Source of the DNA: Clostridia bacterium | GTDB lineage: Bacteria; Bacillota; Clostridia; Oscillospirales; CAG-272 | Length of the DNA: 64,000 bases | NCBI GenBank assembly: GCA_017504995.1 | Contig: JAFVQC010000007.1 | Location: 1,846 to 65,845, forward strand | Direction of reading: 5' to 3' | Shown: piece after piece, positions 4,102-59,070 of the stretch | Layout: the number at the start of each line of letters is the position of its first letter | How positions within the stretch are numbered: the first letter of the stretch is position 1 | The notes under the pieces: generated by a model | Database searches by the model: none | What the model was told of the DNA's origin: nothing | The model's input: the letters and a program-made list of their open reading frames with translations, nothing else | Program-made: the position numbers and the translations under genes

Positions 4102-4174
4102 AAAAGTCCATACGGCAATCTGATATAAGGCAATGTCCGATAAAGAACTTTTTGCGAACGCATCTCTTAAAAAT

Positions 4175-4254
4175 GTAGGGACCGGCGTCCTCGACGGTCC
4201 ATGTTGATTCAATATAAATGCTTCGTTTGGACCGTCGAGGACGCCGATCCCTAC
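4175..4254. repeat. REP-like dyad (two GTAGGG-headed palindromes, heads outward)
   Basis: GTAGGGACCGGCGTCCTCGACGGTCCA (4175-4201) and its inverted copy TGGACCGTCGAGGACGCCGATCCCTAC (4228-4254), 26 bp apart. Confidence 0.85.
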
Positions 4255-4280: not shown

Positions 4281-4329
4281 GATAGCGTAGCCGTGAGAAA
4301 TTTCTCATAGCTACGCTATCTTTGTTTTA
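4281..4329. terminator. Bidirectional terminator, GCGTAGC-family hairpin
   Basis: GATAGCGTAGC-cgtgagaaatttctcata-GCTACGCTATC followed by CTTTGTTTT. It lies between convergent glpP and the DUF4349 gene. Confidence 0.7.
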
Positions 4330-5533: not shown

Positions 5534-5609
5534 GCTGGTATGGCTCAGTCGGTAGAGCACGTCATTGGTAATGACGAGGTCATCAGTTCGATTCTGATTA
5601 CCAGCTCCA
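5534..5609 (+). tRNA. tRNA-Thr (anticodon GGU)
   Basis: Acceptor GCTGGTA/TACCAGC, D arm GCTC-AGTCGGT-AGAGC, anticodon stem CGTCA/TGACG with loop TTGGTAA, T arm ATCAG-TTCGATT-CTGAT, encoded CCA. Confidence 0.9.
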
Positions 5610-5654: not shown

Positions 5655-5920
5655 CACTTGTCAAACGCATAGACGGGGAGTAGTACGAAATCCTCTCGGG
5701 CAAAGAGAACGGACGGTTGGTGTGAGTCCGCGCCGAGAGCTTCGGAAGTCGCCTCCGAGTGGTATGAGTCAAGGAAGCTCCCTTCCCCAGCTCATAACGG
5801 TTGCCGCCGTTATCGGTGTGAATCCGTCACGGATTCCTTGAGATTCTTTTCGCGAGAGAAGAAAAGTCAGGTGGTACCGCGTGCTCCACGCCCTGATACG
5901 GGTGGTGGAGTTTTTCTTTT
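5655..5920 (+). promoter_or_regulatory. T-box leader (tRNA-sensing riboswitch) controlling valS; candidate GUC (Val) specifier
   Basis: Stem I elements GGGGAGTAGTA and AGAGA, plus distal GGTGTGAG. GAA-GTC-G in the putative specifier loop (GTC at 5748-5750). T-box sequence AGGTGGTACCGCG (5869-5881). Terminator CTCCACGCCC...GGGTGGTGGAG + TTTTT (5884-5918). Confidence 0.85.
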
Positions 5921-5955
5921 TGTATTTTATTATTTATGATATATGGAGGTCAATT

Positions 5956-8601
5956 ATGAATTCCTACAACGAACTGCCGAAGGTCTATTCCCCTTCGGAC
6001 TTTGAGGATCGCATCTATCAGAATTGGTGCGACAAAGGATACTTTACCCCCGACGTAAAGAATCCCGCCCCCTCGTTCTCGGTGGTCATTCCGCCCCCCA
6101 ACGTAACGGGTCAACTCCACATGGGGCATGCGCTGGACGAGACCCTACAGGACATTCTGGTGCGCTATAAAAGAATGCAGGGCTTCAACACCCTGTGGGT
6201 CCCCGGTACGGACCATGCGGGAATCGCCACGCAGATCAAGGTGGAGGAGCAGCTCCGTGTCAACGAGGGCTTGACCCGCTACGATCTGGGACGGGACAAA
6301 TTCCTTGAGCGAGTATGGGGTTGGAAGCACCAATACGGCAATCGCATCATCAGCCAGCTCAAAAAGCTGGGCGCGTCCTGCGACTGGACAAGAGAGCGCT
6401 TTACCATGGACGAGGGCTGCTCCCGCGCTGTCCGCGAGGTATTCGTCAATCTCTACGACAAGGGCTTGATCTACCGCGGAAACCGCATCATCAACTGGTG
6501 TCCTCACTGCATTACCGCCCTGTCTGACGCAGAGGTGGAATATGCGGAGCAGGACGGTCATTTCTGGCATATCAAGTATCCCATCAAGGGCGAGGATGGC
6601 TTCGTGGAAGTGGCTACTACCCGTCCCGAAACCATGTTCGGAGATACCGCCGTGGCGGTCAACCCCAACGACGAGGCAACCAAGCACCTCATCGGCAAGA
6701 CCCTGATCCTTCCCATCGTCAACCGCGAGATCCCCGTCATTGCCGACGAGTACGTAGAGATCGGCTTCGGAACGGGCTGTGTGAAGATCACACCCGCCCA
6801 TGACCCCAACGACTTCCTCGTGGGTCAGCGCCATGACCTCGAACAGATCAAGGTCATGAACGACGACGCTACCATGAACGCCTACGCGGGCAAATACGAG
6901 GGTATGGATCGCTATGCCTGCCGCAAAGCCTTGATTGCGGACTTGGAAGCCGAAGGCTATCTCATCAAGACCGTTCCCCACAAGCACAACGTTGGCTCTT
7001 GCTACCGTTGCGGCACGACGGTAGAGCCTCTGACCTCCAATCAATGGTTCGTCAAAATGGAGCCTCTCGCCAAGCCTGCCCTTGAGGTGGTTCGCGACGG
7101 AACGGTGAAGTTCGTACCCGAACGCTTCAGCAAGATCTACGTCAACTGGATGGAAAACGTCCACGACTGGTGTATCTCCCGTCAGCTTTGGTGGGGTCAC
7201 CGTATTCCCGCCTTCTACTGCGACAAGTGCGGCAAGACTACCGTTTCCAAGGAAGATATCACCGTCTGCCCCGACTGCGGCGGTTCGGTCAAGCAGGAAA
7301 ACGACGTGCTTGACACTTGGTTCTCCTCTGCCCTGTGGCCCTTCTCTACCATGGGTTGGCCCGATCAGACCGAGGAGCTTGCCAAATATTATCCCACCAG
7401 CGCTCTCGTCACGGGCTACGATATCATCTTCTTCTGGGTGGCTCGTATGATCTTCTCGGGTCTGGAGCACATGGGAAAAGAGCCATTCTCCACCGTCTTT
7501 ATCCACGGTCTGGTTCGTGATGCCCAGGGACGGAAAATGTCCAAGTCTCTCGGCAACGGCATCGACCCCTTGGAGATCATTGAAAAATACGGCGCGGACG
7601 CCCTTCGTTACGCGCTGGCAACGGGCAACTCCCCCGGAAACGATATGCGCTTCTCGGACGAAAAGATCGAGGCGGCAAGAAACTTCGCCAACAAGCTCTG
7701 GAATGCCTCCCGATTCGTCCGCATGAATCTGACCATTGACGAAATCAAGCTCCCCGCTACCGAGGAGCTGACGGCAGAGGACAAGTGGATTCTCCACGAG
7801 TTCAATAAGCTGACGGCAAGCGTTACCGCGTCGTTGGATAAATACGAGGTTGGCGTCGCGCTGGCTTCGATCTACGACTTTACCTGGGACGTATTCTGCG
7901 ACTGGTATATTGAGCTGACCAAGACAAGACTGAACGATAAAGAATCCGCCTCCAACAAGGTTGCCCAAAACGTGTTGGCGTACGTGCTGACGGGCACATT
8001 GAAGCTCCTGCACCCCTTTATGCCCTTCATTACCGAGGAGATTTATCAGTCCCTTCCCCACAACGACGAAAGCATCATGATCTCCGCTTATCCCAAGTTC
8101 AACGACGCTTTGGTGTTCGAGTCTGACGCCGAGAAAATGAGCCGTGTGATCACGGCGATCAAGGCGATCCGCGCACGCCGCAATGAAATGAACGTGCCCC
8201 CCTCCCGCAAGGCAAAGGTTTATATCGGAACGAAATACACCGACGCCTTCAACGAAAGCACCGCCGTGTTCTTCACCCGTCTGGCTTCCGCCTCCGAGGT
8301 AGAGATCGCCGCCGGCTTTGAGGACGTGCTTTCCGCCGATGACGCCGTGCAGATCGTAACCGAATCCGCCACCATTCTCCTTCCTCTGTCCGATATCGTT
8401 GATACGGAAAAAGAGATCGCCAGACTGGAAGCCGAGCAGAAGAAGCTGACGGGTGAGATCGAGCGCTTGGAAAAGAAGCTTTCCAACGAAGGCTTCGTAG
8501 CAAAAGCGCCTGCCGCCGTGGTTGACGGTGAGAGAGCAAAGCTGGCAAAATACAAGGAAAATCTCGTGGGTGTCGTTGCCGCCTTGGCAAAGATGAAATA
8601 A
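5956..8601 (+). CDS. valS: Valine--tRNA ligase
   Basis: 881 aa from ATG 5956 (RBS TGGAGGT 5944-5950). HIGH-type motif [18 protein letters not shown]-terminal coiled coil. The track start 5881 lies inside the T-box terminator. Confidence 0.95.
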
Positions 8602-8621: not shown

Positions 8622-8668
8622 AGAAGCGTAGCCATGAGAAATTTCACGGCTACGCTTCTTTTTTCTTT
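8622..8668 (+). terminator. valS terminator, GCGTAGC-family hairpin
   Basis: AGAAGCGTAGCC-atgagaaatttcac-GGCTACGCTTCT followed by TTTTTTCTTT. Confidence 0.8.
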
Positions 8669-20561: not shown

Positions 20562-20578
20562 TTTCCTCGGATACAAAG

Positions 20579-20622
20579 CAGCGTAGCTACGAGAACACTC
20601 CTCGTGGCTACGCTGTTTTTTG
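20579..20622 (+). terminator. Terminator, GCGTAGC-family hairpin
   Basis: CAGCGTAGC-tacgagaacactcctcgtg-GCTACGCTG followed by TTTTTTG. Confidence 0.8.
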
Positions 20623-20634
20623 TGAAACGAAAAC

Positions 20635-21075
20635 GGGTCGTCGAGGACGTCGACCCCTACCGTCTCTTAAAAAATATTATTTTTCGGTAGCCGTAATGAT
20701 CTTCATTGACCGTTGTTTCAAAAGGACGGTATCCGATGGTTTCCCTCAATCTTGGTAGGGGCGATTCAAGAATCGCCCGCGACAAACGATCGAATTTTTG
20801 CAATCAAACGGCGGGAGACAAGCCCCCGCCCTACGGTAAAACAATCGAATTTTCGCAATCAATCGGCGAACAGGAAAGGCATCGTTTACCGCAAGGTTCG
20901 TCTGTGGGTCATTCGTGAATAACCCCTACAAAAGAAAACACAATCCTTGGTAGGGGCGATTCAAGAATCGCCCGCAAAAATAACAAAATTCCGCAAACAA
21001 ACGGCAAACCAGAAAGGCATCGTTTACCGTAAGCCTTCCCCAATGGGGAAGGTGGATGCGACGAAGGAGCAGACG
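20635..21075. repeat. Cluster of five REP-like palindromes interleaved with modular repeats
   Basis: GTAGGG-headed palindromes at 20635-20660(-), 20755-20780(+), 20810-20834(-), 20906-20929(-) and 20950-20975(+). Between them lie the modules AATTTTCGCAATCAATCGGCGA, GGCATCGTTTACCG(C/T)AAG and CCTTCCCCAATGGGGAAGGTGGATG. Confidence 0.85.
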
Positions 21076-21222
21076 GATGAGGAGAATGGCATAGAACACA
21101 ACAAACGGCAAGCCGAGAACAATAATTTTTAATGTTAATGAAACACGGCAGGGGTCAACGGTCCATTTCGGTTGTCCACAAACAATAGAAATGAGAAATA
21201 CGATTTCCAAGAATTTGCGCGC

Positions 21223-21287
21223 AAGTTCTTGGAAGGGGTTTTAGGGGAAACCTTCTCGAAAGAAGGTTTCCTCTAACGCATCCTAAC
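21223..21287. repeat. Repeat family E copy 1 (hairpin GGAAACCTTCT-cgaa-AGAAGGTTTCC + CGCATCCTAAC), overlapping the ylmC 3' end
   Basis: About 80% identical by eye to 49055-49122. The ylmC stop codon (21273-21275) and its last codons lie inside the repeat. Confidence 0.8.
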
Positions 21288-28599: not shown

Positions 28600-28690
28600 A
28601 ACACTTCGTGGTCCCCCTTCTCACACAGGAGAAGGCTTACGGTAAACGATGTCCTCACCGTTCGCCATTTGTTTACGGAAATTTGGTTGT
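28600..28690 (-). repeat. Modular composite repeat (modules 1-2-3, reverse orientation)
   Basis: Reverse complement reads AAATTTCCGTAAACAAATGGCGAACGG..GACATCGTTTACCGTAAGCCTTCTCCTGTGTGAGAAGGGGGACCACG. The module order matches 20976-21075. Confidence 0.75.
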
Positions 28691-28696
28691 TTTTTG

Positions 28697-28842
28697 CGGA
28701 CAGCCGAGGACGTCTGTCCCTACAAGTTGTATAAAAATTGTTTCTCTATATCTCGCCATAAAACAAAGCAAAATCCTTGCGGCTACGATAAAAACAATGA
28801 AATTTTCTCAATCCTGTAGGGACAGACGTCCTCGGCTGTCCG
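28697..28842. mobile_element. MITE-like element, copy 1 (146 bp; REP-type 27-bp terminal inverted repeats)
   Basis: CGGACAGCCGAGGACGTCTGTCCCTAC ... GTAGGGACAGACGTCCTCGGCTGTCCG. The ~92-bp core is conserved with 33965-34111 and, inverted, with 56642-56784. Confidence 0.8.
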
Positions 28843-28871
28843 TTCCCATTCATAAGAATCTTTCCTTTTTC

Positions 28872-28972
28872 GGCGCAAGACAAGCCCCCGCCCTACCGCA
28901 TGAAATATTATGTCGCCGTTTATTTGCGAAATTTCAATCGTTTTTCACGGGCGATTCTTGAATCGCCCCTAC
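28872..28972 (-). repeat. Two REP-like palindromes flanking module 1
   Basis: GGCGCAAGACAAGCCCCCGCCCTAC (28872-28896) and ACGGGCGATTCTTGAATCGCCCCTAC (28947-28972). GTCGCCGTTTATTTGCGAAATTTCAATCG lies between them. Confidence 0.8.
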
Positions 28973-33766: not shown

Positions 33767-33871
33767 TTCCCTCTCCTTAAAATATCTCAAATTACATTAT
33801 ATCACATTTCCACCGTGAAGTCAAACACATTTTTCGATTTTATAAAATTTTGATTATATTTTAATTATATA

Positions 33872-33900
33872 TTTACAAAATATTGATTTTGTGGTAAAAT
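33872..33900 (+). promoter_or_regulatory. SigA-type promoter (extended -10) for the DUF951-yfhO operon
   Basis: TTTACA (33872-33877), 17-nt spacer, TGgTAAAAT (33892-33900). Confidence 0.55.
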
Positions 33901-33964
33901 AAATATAATTATAATCAATAGCTTTGTTGAAAATGAGCCGTTTGTTTGCGATTGTCGGTAATTT

Positions 33965-34111
33965 TGGACCGTCGAGGACGCCGGTCCCTACAAGTTTTAA
34001 GAAATTTGTTTCTCTATCTCCCGCCATAAAACAAAACGAAATCCTTACGGCTACAATAAAAGCAATGAAATTCTCTCAATCCCTGTAGGGACCGGCGTCC
34101 TCGACGGTCCA
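33965..34111. mobile_element. MITE-like element, copy 2 (147 bp), in the 5' UTR of the DUF951-yfhO operon
   Basis: TGGACCGTCGAGGACGCCGGTCCCTAC ... GTAGGGACCGGCGTCCTCGACGGTCCA, with a conserved core (GTTTCTCTATCTCCCGCCATAAAACAAAACGAAATCCTTACGGCTACAATAAAAGCAATGAAATTCTCTCAATCC). Confidence 0.8.
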
Positions 34112-34154
34112 TTTTGATTGATTCATCATTCATTTCATTTTTTCTGGTGGTTTT

Positions 34155-34370
34155 ATGGAAATTATCAAGTACAAATTAAACGATATCGTCGAATTAAAAA
34201 AGCCGCATCCCTGCGGCAACAAGCAATTCAAAATTTTACGCGTGGGAAGCGAGATGCGGATCCTCTGCACCGAATGCGGACGGGATCTGGTGATCGACCG
34301 TGTAAAGCTCGAAAAGGCAACCAAAAAGATCTATCCCGCCATTTCCGAGGAAGGAGCGTCAGAAGCATGA
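34155..34370 (+). CDS. DUF951 family small protein
   Basis: 71 aa. DIVELKKPHPCGNKQFKILRVGSEMRILCTECGRDLVIDR, a typical DUF951 zinc-ribbon-like pattern. Confidence 0.8.
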   Translation: MEIIKYKLNDIVELKKPHPCGNKQFKILRVGSEMRILCTECGRDLVIDRVKLEKATKKIYPAISEEGASEA

Positions 34371-37324: not shown

Positions 37325-37348
37325 GTAGGGCGGGGGCTTGCTCCCGCC
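37325..37348 (+). repeat. REP-like palindrome (variant c)
   Basis: GTAGGGCGGGGGCTTGCTCCCGCC. Confidence 0.8.
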
Positions 37349-37410
37349 GAAAGGAAAGAGCCTTGCGAATGAGAACGGACCGCCAAATTTCCGCAATCAA
37401 TCGGCGAGCA

Positions 37411-37541
37411 ACCAAAGCCTTCCCCTGTGGGGAAGGGGGACCGCTTGCGGTGGATGAGGAGATCGCCGCTTGTTGCAATCTATGCCGATCTCCTCATCTG
37501 TCGGCTTCGCCGCCACCTTCCCCACAGGGGAAGGCTTTGGT
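37411..37541. repeat. 131-bp nested inverted repeat (long composite hairpin) upstream of ruvA
   Basis: Outer arms are ACCAAAGCCTTCCCCTGTGGGGAAGG (37411-37436) and CCTTCCCCACAGGGGAAGGCTTTGGT (37516-37541). Inner perfect arms are GATGAGGAGATCG (37453-37465) and CGATCTCCTCATC (37486-37498). Confidence 0.85.
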
Positions 37542-56003: not shown

Positions 56004-56150
56004 CGGGAGGAGCAAGCCCCTCCCCTACCTCGTATGATGGTGTTTCAAAATCCAATTATATCCATTATGTTCGTAAAGCGCTAAAGGAAAAGCGAATGGC
56101 TTCTGTTAAAACAAACAAGAGATCGGTAGGGGAGGGGCTTGCTCCTCCCG
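56004..56150. repeat. REP-like dyad, variant c, heads inward
   Basis: CGGGAGGAGCAAGCCCCTCCCCTAC (56004-56028) and GTAGGGGAGGGGCTTGCTCCTCCCG (56126-56150). Confidence 0.85.
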
Positions 56151-56266
56151 TATCTATTGTCAAAACTAACGCAAAGGCACTTTTGACATTAGCATATCAA
56201 AAGTCTTTCACTTACCTTCCGAAAAGTAATAAAAAGCCTTCCCTTGTGGAAAAAACTGAATAAACC

Positions 56267-56314
56267 GTAGGGGCGTTCTGCGAACGCCCGCGGGCGAACA
56301 CAGTTCGCCCCTAC
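56267..56314. repeat. Abutting REP-like dyad, variant d, heads outward
   Basis: GTAGGGGCGTTCTGCGAACGCCCGC directly joined to GGGCGAACACAGTTCGCCCCTAC. Confidence 0.85.
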
Positions 56315-56413
56315 CGAGTTTTTTGAAAATTTGAGAGATATGTTCTTAATTAAAGCATACGACGAACTGCATTTGCAGACACAAATGCGAATATTATTAA
56401 CAAAAAATAGTAT

Positions 56414-56450
56414 GCCGCCGACGGTTGAATCGTCGGCGGCGTGTTTTTTT
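56414..56450 (+). terminator. Orphan rho-independent terminator with no upstream gene
   Basis: GCCGCCGACG-gttgaat-CGTCGGCGGC, then gtg and TTTTTTT. Confidence 0.7.
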
Positions 56451-56503
56451 GATCCCCAATAAATCCCCCTTAACCGAGCTCACTCGGGATCTTATTACTC
56501 CTT

Positions 56504-56530
56504 GTAGGGACAGGCGTCCTCGACTGTCCG
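56504..56530 (+). repeat. REP-like palindrome, variant a
   Basis: GTAGGGACAGGCGTCCTCGACTGTCCG. It pairs, heads outward, with 56642-56668. Confidence 0.85.
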
Positions 56531-56641
56531 AGAAAAATTATAGATAATAGCTAACCATACGGAAAGAGAGTAAACATTAAGTTACAGTTGATGGGGGAGT
56601 GTCTTGCTGTTCCTGTTTGCGAAAAAAGATTTATGCCCAAA

Positions 56642-56784
56642 CGGACAGTCGAGGACGCCTGTCCCTACAAGATATAAGAGAATTTCATAGTTTTTATCGT
56701 AGCCGCAGGCTTTCTTTTTGTTTTATGGTGAGAAATATAGAAACAAATTTTTGAAAACCGTAGGGACAGGACGCCTGTCCCTAC
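56642..56784. mobile_element. MITE-like element, copy 3 (inverted orientation; right end collapsed to a 25-nt perfect hairpin)
   Basis: CGGACAGTCGAGGACGCCTGTCCCTAC, then a core matching the reverse complement of the 33992-34084 core, then GTAGGGACAGGacgCCTGTCCCTAC (56760-56784). Confidence 0.8.
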
Positions 56785-58836: not shown

Positions 58837-58859
58837 GACGAATATGGAATTCGCCCTAC
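58837..58859 (-). repeat. REP-like palindrome, variant e
   Basis: Reverse complement GTAGGGCGAATTCCATATTCGTC. Confidence 0.75.
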
Positions 58860-58919: not shown

Positions 58920-58995
58920 CGGACCGCCGAGGACGTCGGTCCCTACAAAATTCAATAAAATTTCATTGTTTTTATCGTAGCCGTGAAGTTTTCGC
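58920..58995 (-). mobile_element. Partial MITE-like element (one REP end plus about half of the core)
   Basis: CGGACCGCCGAGGACGTCGGTCCCTAC followed by AAAATTCAATAAAATTTCATTGTTTTTATCGTAGCCGTGAAGTTTTCG. This matches the left half of copy 3. Confidence 0.7.
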
Positions 58996-59000
58996 TTTGC

Positions 59001-59040
59001 TTTGCTTTGTTTTCTTTTGTTTTGCTTTGTTTTCTTTTGC
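59001..59040. repeat. Two tandem 20-bp T-rich repeats
   Basis: TTTGCTTTGTTTTCTTTTGT / TTTGCTTTGTTTTCTTTTGC. Confidence 0.8.
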
Positions 59041-59070
59041 TTACTTTTCTTTTGCAAAAGAAAAGTAAGC
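59039..59070. repeat. Perfect 32-nt palindrome downstream of whiA
   Basis: GCTTACTTTTCTTTTG/CAAAAGAAAAGTAAGC. No T-run follows in the whiA direction. Confidence 0.8.

Follow-up and report, generated by a model that had tools for sequence, protein, structure and literature searches.

Hairpin repeats with a GTAG head in the intergenic DNA of a Clostridia bacterium: probable REP elements whose stem variants recur inside RAYT genes of related genomes

The DNA analysed here is a stretch of 64,000 nucleotides from a Clostridia bacterium of the Oscillospirales (assembly GCA_017504995.1, contig JAFVQC010000007.1, positions 1,846 to 65,845 of the forward strand), which we call the window and in which position 1 is the first letter. 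Its G+C content is 52.5%, its proteins agree in every residue with MBR2292735 to MBR2292765 of a metagenome-assembled genome labelled 'Clostridia bacterium', and its intergenic regions carry short repeats in which GTAGGG, the head, is followed directly by an imperfect palindrome. An earlier note, made from the letters without database searches, had listed 23 such copies with at least five stem variants (a to e) and had likened them to the repetitive extragenic palindromes (REPs) and bacterial interspersed mosaic elements (BIMEs) of Proteobacteria. We consider it highly probable that they are GTAG-type REPs, arranged in inverted doublets that resemble REPINs and in mosaics that resemble BIMEs, and that they are non-autonomous partners of an HuH/Y1 enzyme of the REP-associated tyrosine transposase type (RAYT, or TnpA-REP). 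The elements and the genes beside them are as follows.

4175-4254: heads-out doublet of variant a, made of 4175-4200 (+) and 4229-4254 (-, two stem mismatches) with a 28-nt tail linker; its neighbours are the G3P-antiterminator stop codon (4101) on one side and the terminator hairpin 4283-4325 on the other.
20628-21166: mosaic block of 539 bp with conserved tail linkers and five REPs, 20635-20660 (-, a), 20755-20778 (+, b), 20810-20834 (-, c), 20906-20929 (-, b-like) and 20950-20973 (+, b); a second repeat family contributes a hairpin at 21034-21052.
28698-28972: mosaic of four REPs in the truA-DUF5711 spacer, 28698-28723 (-, a), 28816-28841 (+, a), 28872-28896 (-, c, degenerate) and 28949-28972 (-, b).
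28698-28841: heads-in unit with a conserved spacer of 92 nt.
33966-34110: heads-in unit of variant a, 33966-33991 (-) and 34085-34110 (+), with a 93-nt spacer, between the divergent genes ruvC and yfhO.
37325-37348, plus strand: single REP of variant c between yfhO and ruvA, followed on its 3' side by tail linker sequence and then by the long inverted repeat of the second family at 37404-37540.
56005-56149: heads-in doublet of variant c', 56005-56028 (-) and 56126-56149 (+), with a 97-nt spacer.
56267-56314: heads-out, nearly abutting pair of variant d, 56267-56289 (+) and 56292-56314 (-).
56504-56668: heads-out pair of variant a, 56504-56529 (+) and 56643-56668 (-), with a segment of 113 nt (56530-56642) between them.
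56669-56784 region: head-side spacer module of 91 nt, of the same family as 28724-28815 but in reverse complement, followed by the REP 56760-56784.
56760-56784: 'double-foot' REP of the form GTAG...CTAC, GTAGGGACAGGACGCCTGTCCCTAC, -10.8 kcal/mol.
58839-58859, minus strand: 'variant e', a GTAGGG head with a weak, out-of-register hairpin.
58921-58946, minus strand: REP of variant a in the lactamase_B-whiA spacer, with a partial head-side spacer module at 58947-58983.

Every position listed in the earlier note does carry GTAGGG and then a palindrome, with two copies degenerate (4229-4254 and 28872-28896) and variant e in doubt. On the two strands together the word GTAGGG occurs 35 times. In 100 shuffles of the window that preserve dinucleotides the count was 13.51±3.90 and at most 27, so that the word is 2.6-fold over-represented; the palindrome stands directly 3' of 23 of the 35 occurrences. 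A strict scan, which required a stem of 6 bp or more right after GTAG and tolerated a single mismatch, returned 28 sites, where 200 first-order Markov simulations gave 4.97±2.10 (maximum 13); 21 of them are elements of the GTAGG type, which we count as solid copies of GTAG plus hairpin, and the other seven resemble chance matches within genes. Enrichment of the motif, which the note had proposed to look for across the genome, is present in the window. A control count of hairpins behind all 4-mer heads gave no information, since terminators and hairpins of other kinds abound. All copies lie outside open reading frames (ORFs) of 150 aa or more, which bears out their description as intergenic, and the short ORFs that overlap them gave zero matches in a Pfam search. 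Their density is about 0.36 per kb over the 64 kb, and the clusters are found between convergent genes in three cases, between co-directional genes in three and between divergent genes in one.

When the variants were folded as single-stranded DNA, GTAG was left unpaired, the G after it opened the stem, and the energies ranged from -5.6 to -10.8 kcal/mol. The 'GTAGGG head' is thus GTAG plus the first G-C pairs of the stem foot. These foot pairs number three in variants b, c' and d and two in variants a and c, and the stems as a whole are G+C-rich and 7-9 bp long. Variant e has a 6-bp stem out of register (-3.6 kcal/mol), and in the sister strain L001 (numbers with L denote loci of other genomes or metagenomes) its head reads ATAAGG in place of GTAGGG; its standing as a REP is doubtful. 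GTAG starts all 23 copies.

The stems had also been said to covary so as to keep pairing, and for variant a this could be measured. Among 45 distinct 26-mers of this variant, taken from the window and from the loci fetched from about 120 genome blocks, each of the three stem positions that the pattern had not fixed showed 17-20 double-sided compensatory changes. The covariation score was 0.346, against 0.077 in shuffles, none of 500 shuffles reached 0.346, and the score collapsed to 0.077 or less when the register was slid. One purine-purine mismatch is kept in 38 of the 45 sequences.

With regard to arrangement, heads-out, heads-in and nearly abutting pairs are all present, as the earlier note described. 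The heads-out doublets measure 80 bp (4175-4254, 20755-20834 and 28816-28896), 48 bp (56267-56314) or 165 bp (56504-56668), and the heads-in units enclose a spacer of 91-97 nt. This head-side spacer is a conserved module, ...ACGGCTACGATAAAAACAATGAAATTTTCTCAATCCT-GTAGGG, represented in the window by three full copies and one partial copy with 85-90% identity; it was not found in 120 blocks of other species. The tail-side linkers are partially conserved. Orientation mostly alternates in the clusters 20635-20973, 28698-28972 and 56005-56784, with two same-strand neighbours, and different stem variants are interleaved inside single clusters. Larger pieces recur as well: the units 28698-28841 and 33966-34110 are 86-90% identical over their full length, and near-identical copies stand with their flanks at distant sites, as in 4174-4209 and 34084-34119 (97% identity). 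The statement that the mutY-gap spacer is built almost entirely from copies went too far, since the hairpins make up about 17% of its 983 bp and the composite units bounded by REPs about 48%; the rest includes three ordinary terminator hairpins.

The elements are by no means confined to this contig. A scan of species-representative genomes with a variant-a pattern of 18 specified bases gave at least 120 blocks, and among the matches listed these belong overwhelmingly to Clostridia of the gut and rumen, namely Oscillospiraceae, Acutalibacteraceae, Ruminococcus flavefaciens and Gemmiger formicilis. Hairpins of the GTAGG type have a density of 0.37 per kb in these blocks, and the window's variants b, c, c' and d are among them. 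Moreover, the GTAG-GG foot recurs in 68 of 80 RAYT loci from metagenomes, although the search pattern did not impose it, so that the head is conserved well outside the window. About 17 matches to the variant-a pattern are expected by chance (596 Gb, two strands, divided by 4^18), and a few of the matches in other phyla may for this reason be accidental. Variant a was seen in metagenome-assembled genomes (MAGs) of gut origin assigned to Kiritimatiellaeota (L072, with a doublet, and L125), Opitutales (L041, with four copies), Verrucomicrobia (L115) and Opitutaceae (L017), where it could reflect horizontal spread, mis-binned contigs or chance.

As the earlier note had stated, the window itself has no RAYT-like gene: tblastn with E. 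coli RayT and four Clostridial RAYTs matched only residues encoded by the hairpins (E>=0.2). Genes of this kind are present in related Clostridia genomes and metagenomes, and they carry the window's exact hairpins. Searches by tblastn with E. coli RayT (MG1655), and then with the new proteins, found Y1 genes in L009, L025 (two) and L110, together with partial ones at the contig ends of L036 and L069. The Clostridial proteins, of 160-175 aa, match Pfam Y1_Tnp and score 61-68 bits with the NCBIfam model REP_Tyr_transpos, against about 18 bits with the IS200 model (cut-off 55). In a profile search with a single protein the best solved structure was E. coli TnpA-REP (4ER8); this is the valid search, because our alignment A2 contains E. 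coli RayT and a structure search with it is not independent. Invariant in A2 are HuH, WQ, the catalytic Tyr and the positions W, Q, H and R that contact GTAG in E. coli, the residue roles being taken from PMC6006769. The motifs of A2 and of seven further genes read PNHIH, IWQ and YID(T/E/N)N(V/P). Searches with the two L025 paralogues as queries returned 6311 and 5236 proteins at E<=1e-10, so the family is a large one. Neither insertion sequence (IS) ends nor tnpB was found with the RAYT genes, and in the two surroundings inspected (L131 and L132) the genes sit among housekeeping genes; together with the low IS200-model score, this context speaks against an IS200/IS605 identity. A small gene on the same strand lies directly upstream of RAYT in L131 (9754-9999) and in L025 (5527-5865), the former being an HTH_3/HTH_26 (XRE-type) gene by Pfam.

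The link between these enzymes and the window is carried by REPs inside the RAYT genes. In the genes found by tblastn these in-gene REPs are in frame, heads out, two per gene, and bracket the HuH motif; the sense copy encodes VGxGVLDxP and the antisense copy GxSxTPxPT. Both peptides are insertions relative to E. coli RayT, and they covary as reverse-complement coding predicts (VGDGVLDVP with GTSRTPSPT, VGAIHESP with RAIRESPLQ). Two internal GTAG hairpins are present in 52 of the 80 metagenome loci, one in 14, three in two and none in 12, the usual positions being about +110 (sense) and about +280 (antisense). Where a locus has flanking REPs as well, their variant is in many cases that of the internal hairpins. 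In L131, which comes from a different MAG from that of the window, with accessions in the range MBR1969xxx to MBR1970xxx, the RAYT gene contains GGACAGGCGTCCTCGACTGTCC and GGACCGGCGTCCTCGACGGTCC, both identical to window copies, and 22-nt hairpins of variant a identical to window copies occur in the RAYT genes of L131, L140 and L141. Variant b is found in L145 and L205 (loop difference) and in the clade with VGAIHESP; variant c is exact in L206 and L171, and its predicted peptide VGRGLAPA was found; variant c' has a near match in L182; variant d is exact in L161, with the peptide VGANCVRP; and double-foot copies lie within the RAYT genes of L196, L198, L203 and L207. At the level of sequence, then, each of the stem variants a, b, c and d matches a separate RAYT gene or paralogue in other genomes. 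None of ten RAYT candidates had an accession in the series of the window's proteins. In one NCBI MAG, however, the RAYT gene is divided between two contig ends, and REP clusters are where short-read contigs stop; because assemblies break at these repeats, the absence of a RAYT from a MAG is weak evidence. The genome from which the window comes probably has RAYT genes of its own.

By analogy with E. coli TnpA-REP, the RAYT would recognise the folded hairpin and its GTAG guide on single-stranded DNA, then cut and rejoin, and in this way would spread, delete or rearrange copies. On this view the REP clusters behave as strain-level hot spots of insertion, replacement and inversion. We compared the window with contigs that have an identical GAPDH or 98-99% identical flanks, and found presence/absence, replacement and inversion at REP sites, the kind of polymorphism that the earlier note had proposed to look for in relatives. 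The block 20628-21166 with its five REPs is absent in L223, L224 and L225, which have 14-20 unrelated bases instead, in flanks that are 98.2-99.4% identical between strains. The doublet 56005-56149 is present in the window, L002 and L004, and a different, heads-out doublet occupies the place in L001, L003 and L006. At 33966-34110, upstream of ruvC, L225 has a heads-in doublet of variant c' where the window has variant a, and synteny breaks. The copy 58921-58946 is missing from L003, and the segment 56530-56642 is inverted in L005, exactly between its inverted REPs.

Some further differences between strains were seen near these sites. Gene order differs between 33790-34210 and L225 1-540, with yfhO and then ruvA in the window and a DUF951 gene in L225. 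Over roughly its first 90 nt the window's yfhO ORF is 86% identical to the beginning of the DUF951 gene, a likeness that points to a rearrangement or fusion there. A 10-nt tandem repeat, GTTAGGATGC, at about 21265-21285 has three copies in L223 and L224 and one in the window (L215 5512-5530 compared with L223). Upstream of lactamase_B, at 58985-59060, a T-rich short tandem repeat (TTTTGCTTTG-like) varies in length and is 74 bp longer in L001.

Several points weigh against the REP-RAYT reading. The matching enzymes were shown in other organisms only; their scores of 61-68 bits lie under the NCBIfam equivalog cut-off of 80 bits; the assignment to a RAYT subclass discussed below is by motifs; and sequence-specific cleavage of REPs by the Clostridial clade is predicted from the E. 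coli enzyme. Neither a transposition footprint nor a target-site rule was found at the polymorphic sites. Short unrelated sequence takes the place of polymorphic blocks, an outcome as compatible with deletion or recombination as with transposition. The cluster 28698-28972, moreover, differs by only three SNPs between the window and L225, so not every copy is in flux. An alternative is that the repeats are true REPs that are now inert, and that strains differ through homologous recombination, slippage and allele exchange with no RAYT activity. The window's lack of a RAYT would agree with this, as would the stability of 28698-28972, the likeness of the 539-bp difference to a block indel, and the inversion in L005, whose bounding 26-bp inverted repeats could be used by ordinary recombination. 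However, at two loci a doublet has been swapped for one of another variant or architecture, which is not a product of simple deletion; intact RAYT genes with matching hairpins abound in relatives, in a family of thousands of proteins; and near-identical copies stand with their flanks at distant sites, as at 4174-4209 and 34084-34119. We therefore hold inert relics to be unlikely, while giving them real weight. A different account of the same inversion, that REP-bounded segments are phase-variable invertons flipped as switches by a site-specific invertase, seems to us barely plausible. It could call on the inverted segment 56530-56642 and on a weak promoter-like match (9 of 12 positions) that overlaps the segment's edge, but promoter-like matches in the spacer are no commoner than in shuffles, only one inversion was seen among seven strains, and no invertase gene was noticed beside the segment in a window that was not screened for invertases. 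The segment also lies between two convergent genes, so that it would have nothing to drive.

The hairpins might instead be mainly RNA elements, intrinsic terminators or stabilisers of 3' ends, whose repetition reflects convergent function without mobility. Most clusters do lie between convergent or co-directional genes, the doublet 4175-4254 is probably transcribed because it lies between a stop codon and a terminator hairpin, and Di Nocera et al. (2013) hold that many REPs act as RNA elements. Still, a T-run follows almost no copy, and of the eight sites in the mutY-gap spacer that look like terminators a single, weak one shares bases with a REP (56130-56149); flanks and scan alike agree with the earlier note that most copies are not simply terminators. 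Several copies are placed past the actual terminators with which mutY, gap and the GT87 gene end, one unit is within a divergent promoter region, both orientations occur, identical hairpins stand within RAYT genes, and whole clusters are dispensable between near-identical strains. A mainly RNA-based role is on this evidence very unlikely. The repeats could also be pseudogene debris, that is, fragments of decayed RAYT genes that have kept their in-gene hairpins. The heads-out REP pair of a RAYT gene, about 170-200 bp apart, does resemble the 165-bp pair 56504-56668, and the 5' flank CTCAATCC of several copies reads L-S-I-P where the RAYT hairpin follows L-S-x-I. But the tblastn searches with four RAYT proteins recovered only hairpin-encoded residues, most doublets are 48-80 bp long or heads-in, and local alignments of the spacers to six RAYT genes were no better than shuffled controls, so that the spacers were rejected as RAYT remnants and the debris explanation has next to no probability.

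The REP/BIME/RAYT architecture proposed in the earlier note is thus supported, and the findings that it had named as refuting the proposal were looked for and none was obtained. Going by the E. coli enzyme, we infer that the strain polymorphism would stem from RAYT catalysis and not from ordinary recombination, which, acting between repeats, could account for part of it. The host, too, may benefit from the elements. A bolder extension would make the inverted REP pair inside the RAYT gene its functional core, a REPtron of its own able to invert or excise the catalytic segment as a self-limiting switch; the in-gene copies would be masters that seed each intergenic family, and the inversion of 56530-56642 would be the same reaction at a non-coding site. 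This is quite a long shot. No RAYT locus examined had the HuH segment on the opposite strand, in a sample that is small and biased to intact genes.

Among known systems, the E. coli REP/BIME elements with RayT (YafM, 4ER8) share with ours the 5' GTAG beside an imperfect palindrome, the extragenic location, the alternating orientation with conserved linkers, and a Y1 HuH enzyme with conserved GTAG-contact residues. They differ in their longer, bulged stems, in a protein identity of only about 27% and in REPs that flank the RayT gene, whereas here they are inside it; binding of IHF, gyrase and Pol I is known for E. coli BIMEs, and our comparison with them is drawn from sequence. The REPINs of Pseudomonas (Bertels and Rainey 2011) consist of an inverted REP pair and spacer duplicated as a unit in a RAYT-linked population, which the doublets here may resemble. 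The window's conserved unit differs in its heads-in layout and in a spacer, 91-97 nt long, that makes no obvious single long hairpin, and up to five REP families are interleaved per cluster. IS200/IS605 elements and their hairpin-ended derivatives have in common with our system the Y1 HuH fold and the recognition of single-strand hairpins, but not the scores, which are 61-68 bits with the RAYT model and about 18 with the IS200 model, nor IS ends and tnpB, which are lacking here.

The closest fit is with TnpA-REP subclass 2.4, in which the Clostridial RAYTs may be placed by their motifs, no phylogeny having been used. This subclass, described by Quentin et al. (2018, PMC6006769) and equal to Group 4 of Bertels et al. 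(2017), has the motifs NH[IFV]H, WQ and YIxNNP, and its REPs are described as long, with three G-C pairs at the foot, double-foot forms and in-frame insertions within tnpA-REP (PMC6006769). Shared with it are the GTAG foot, the G-C stem base, the double-foot form (56760-56784), in-frame REPs, the protein motifs, and the presence of several REP families per genome with one RAYT each. The published hosts are Cyanobacteria, Bacteroidetes and 'various phyla' (PMC6006769), unlike the gut and rumen Clostridia found here. The published proteins have a median of 194 aa, against 160-175 aa in our set, and the published insertions generally lie between HuH and Y, where we see a pair flanking HuH in 52 of 80 genes. 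Sequence-specific cleavage of REP single-stranded DNA has been demonstrated for the E. coli enzyme only (PMC6006769). Di Nocera et al. (2013) reported GTAG REPs in more than 80 species of eight phyla, with neither Firmicutes nor Clostridia in the main text, and Bertels et al. (2017) noted Group 1 RAYTs in Clostridia. In the literature searched we found no description of REP/BIME arrays in Oscillospirales or Clostridia. In-gene REPs are already published; the novelty lies in the hosts and in the regular pair, with one REP before HuH and one after it.

Other repeats and RNA features of the window may be recorded here. A second repeat family has the form GCCTTCCCC-loop-GGGGAAGG, then gggaCCGCttgcGGTGGATGAGGtG, and often lies tens of bases from a GTAG REP. 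In the window it occurs at 21034-21052, 28608-28640 and 37404-37540 (hairpins 37418-37436 and 37516-37534), and at the last of these places it makes up a long inverted repeat (about 135 nt) that ends shortly before ruvA. Conservation of the family extends over several genomes of Clostridia (L011, L016, L039, L046, L061, L075, L083, L090, L092 and L126), and an Rfam search with it matched no family. The terminators 4283-4325, 8623-8665 and 20577-20620 have a common stem, AGCGTAGCC...GGCTACGCT, plus a T-run, and so contain GTAGC...GCTAC; half of this motif, CGTAGCCG, also occurs within the head-side spacer module, and CGTAGCYR is found 17 times against 4.1 expected. These GTAGC-stem terminators may be derived from REPs or may be a third repeat family. 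In the middle of the mutY-gap spacer, with annotated genes on neither side, a strong bidirectional terminator hairpin of 17 pairs (56409-56445) may mark a small unannotated transcript between REP units. Rfam at gathering thresholds reported in the window only a T-box and tRNAs, namely a T-box leader at 5661-5898, upstream of an ORF of 906 aa (5881-8601), and three tRNA genes at 888-959, 991-1072 and 5534-5606; permissive Rfam searches with two clusters gave only meaningless microRNA-like hairpin matches. A low-complexity T/C-rich repeat lies within an ORF at 2119-2266.

To our knowledge, Proteobacteria account for almost all the work done on REPs and RAYTs, apart from surveys that covered Cyanobacteria and Bacteroidetes. 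If the repeats described here are what we take them to be, they would extend the host range of REP-RAYT systems to abundant Clostridia of the gut and rumen, with at least four to five co-resident REP families. They would also have a practical side, as short-read contigs break at the repeats, RAYT genes are split and gene callers emit spurious ORFs from the hairpins. Each RAYT gene contains a hairpin of its own, so that the sequence suffices to assign REP variants to RAYT paralogues, and this pairing may offer a clean case for studying the co-evolution of an enzyme and its DNA substrate. Finally, REP repeats may serve as a pointer to a source of strain-level variation in gut bacteria.

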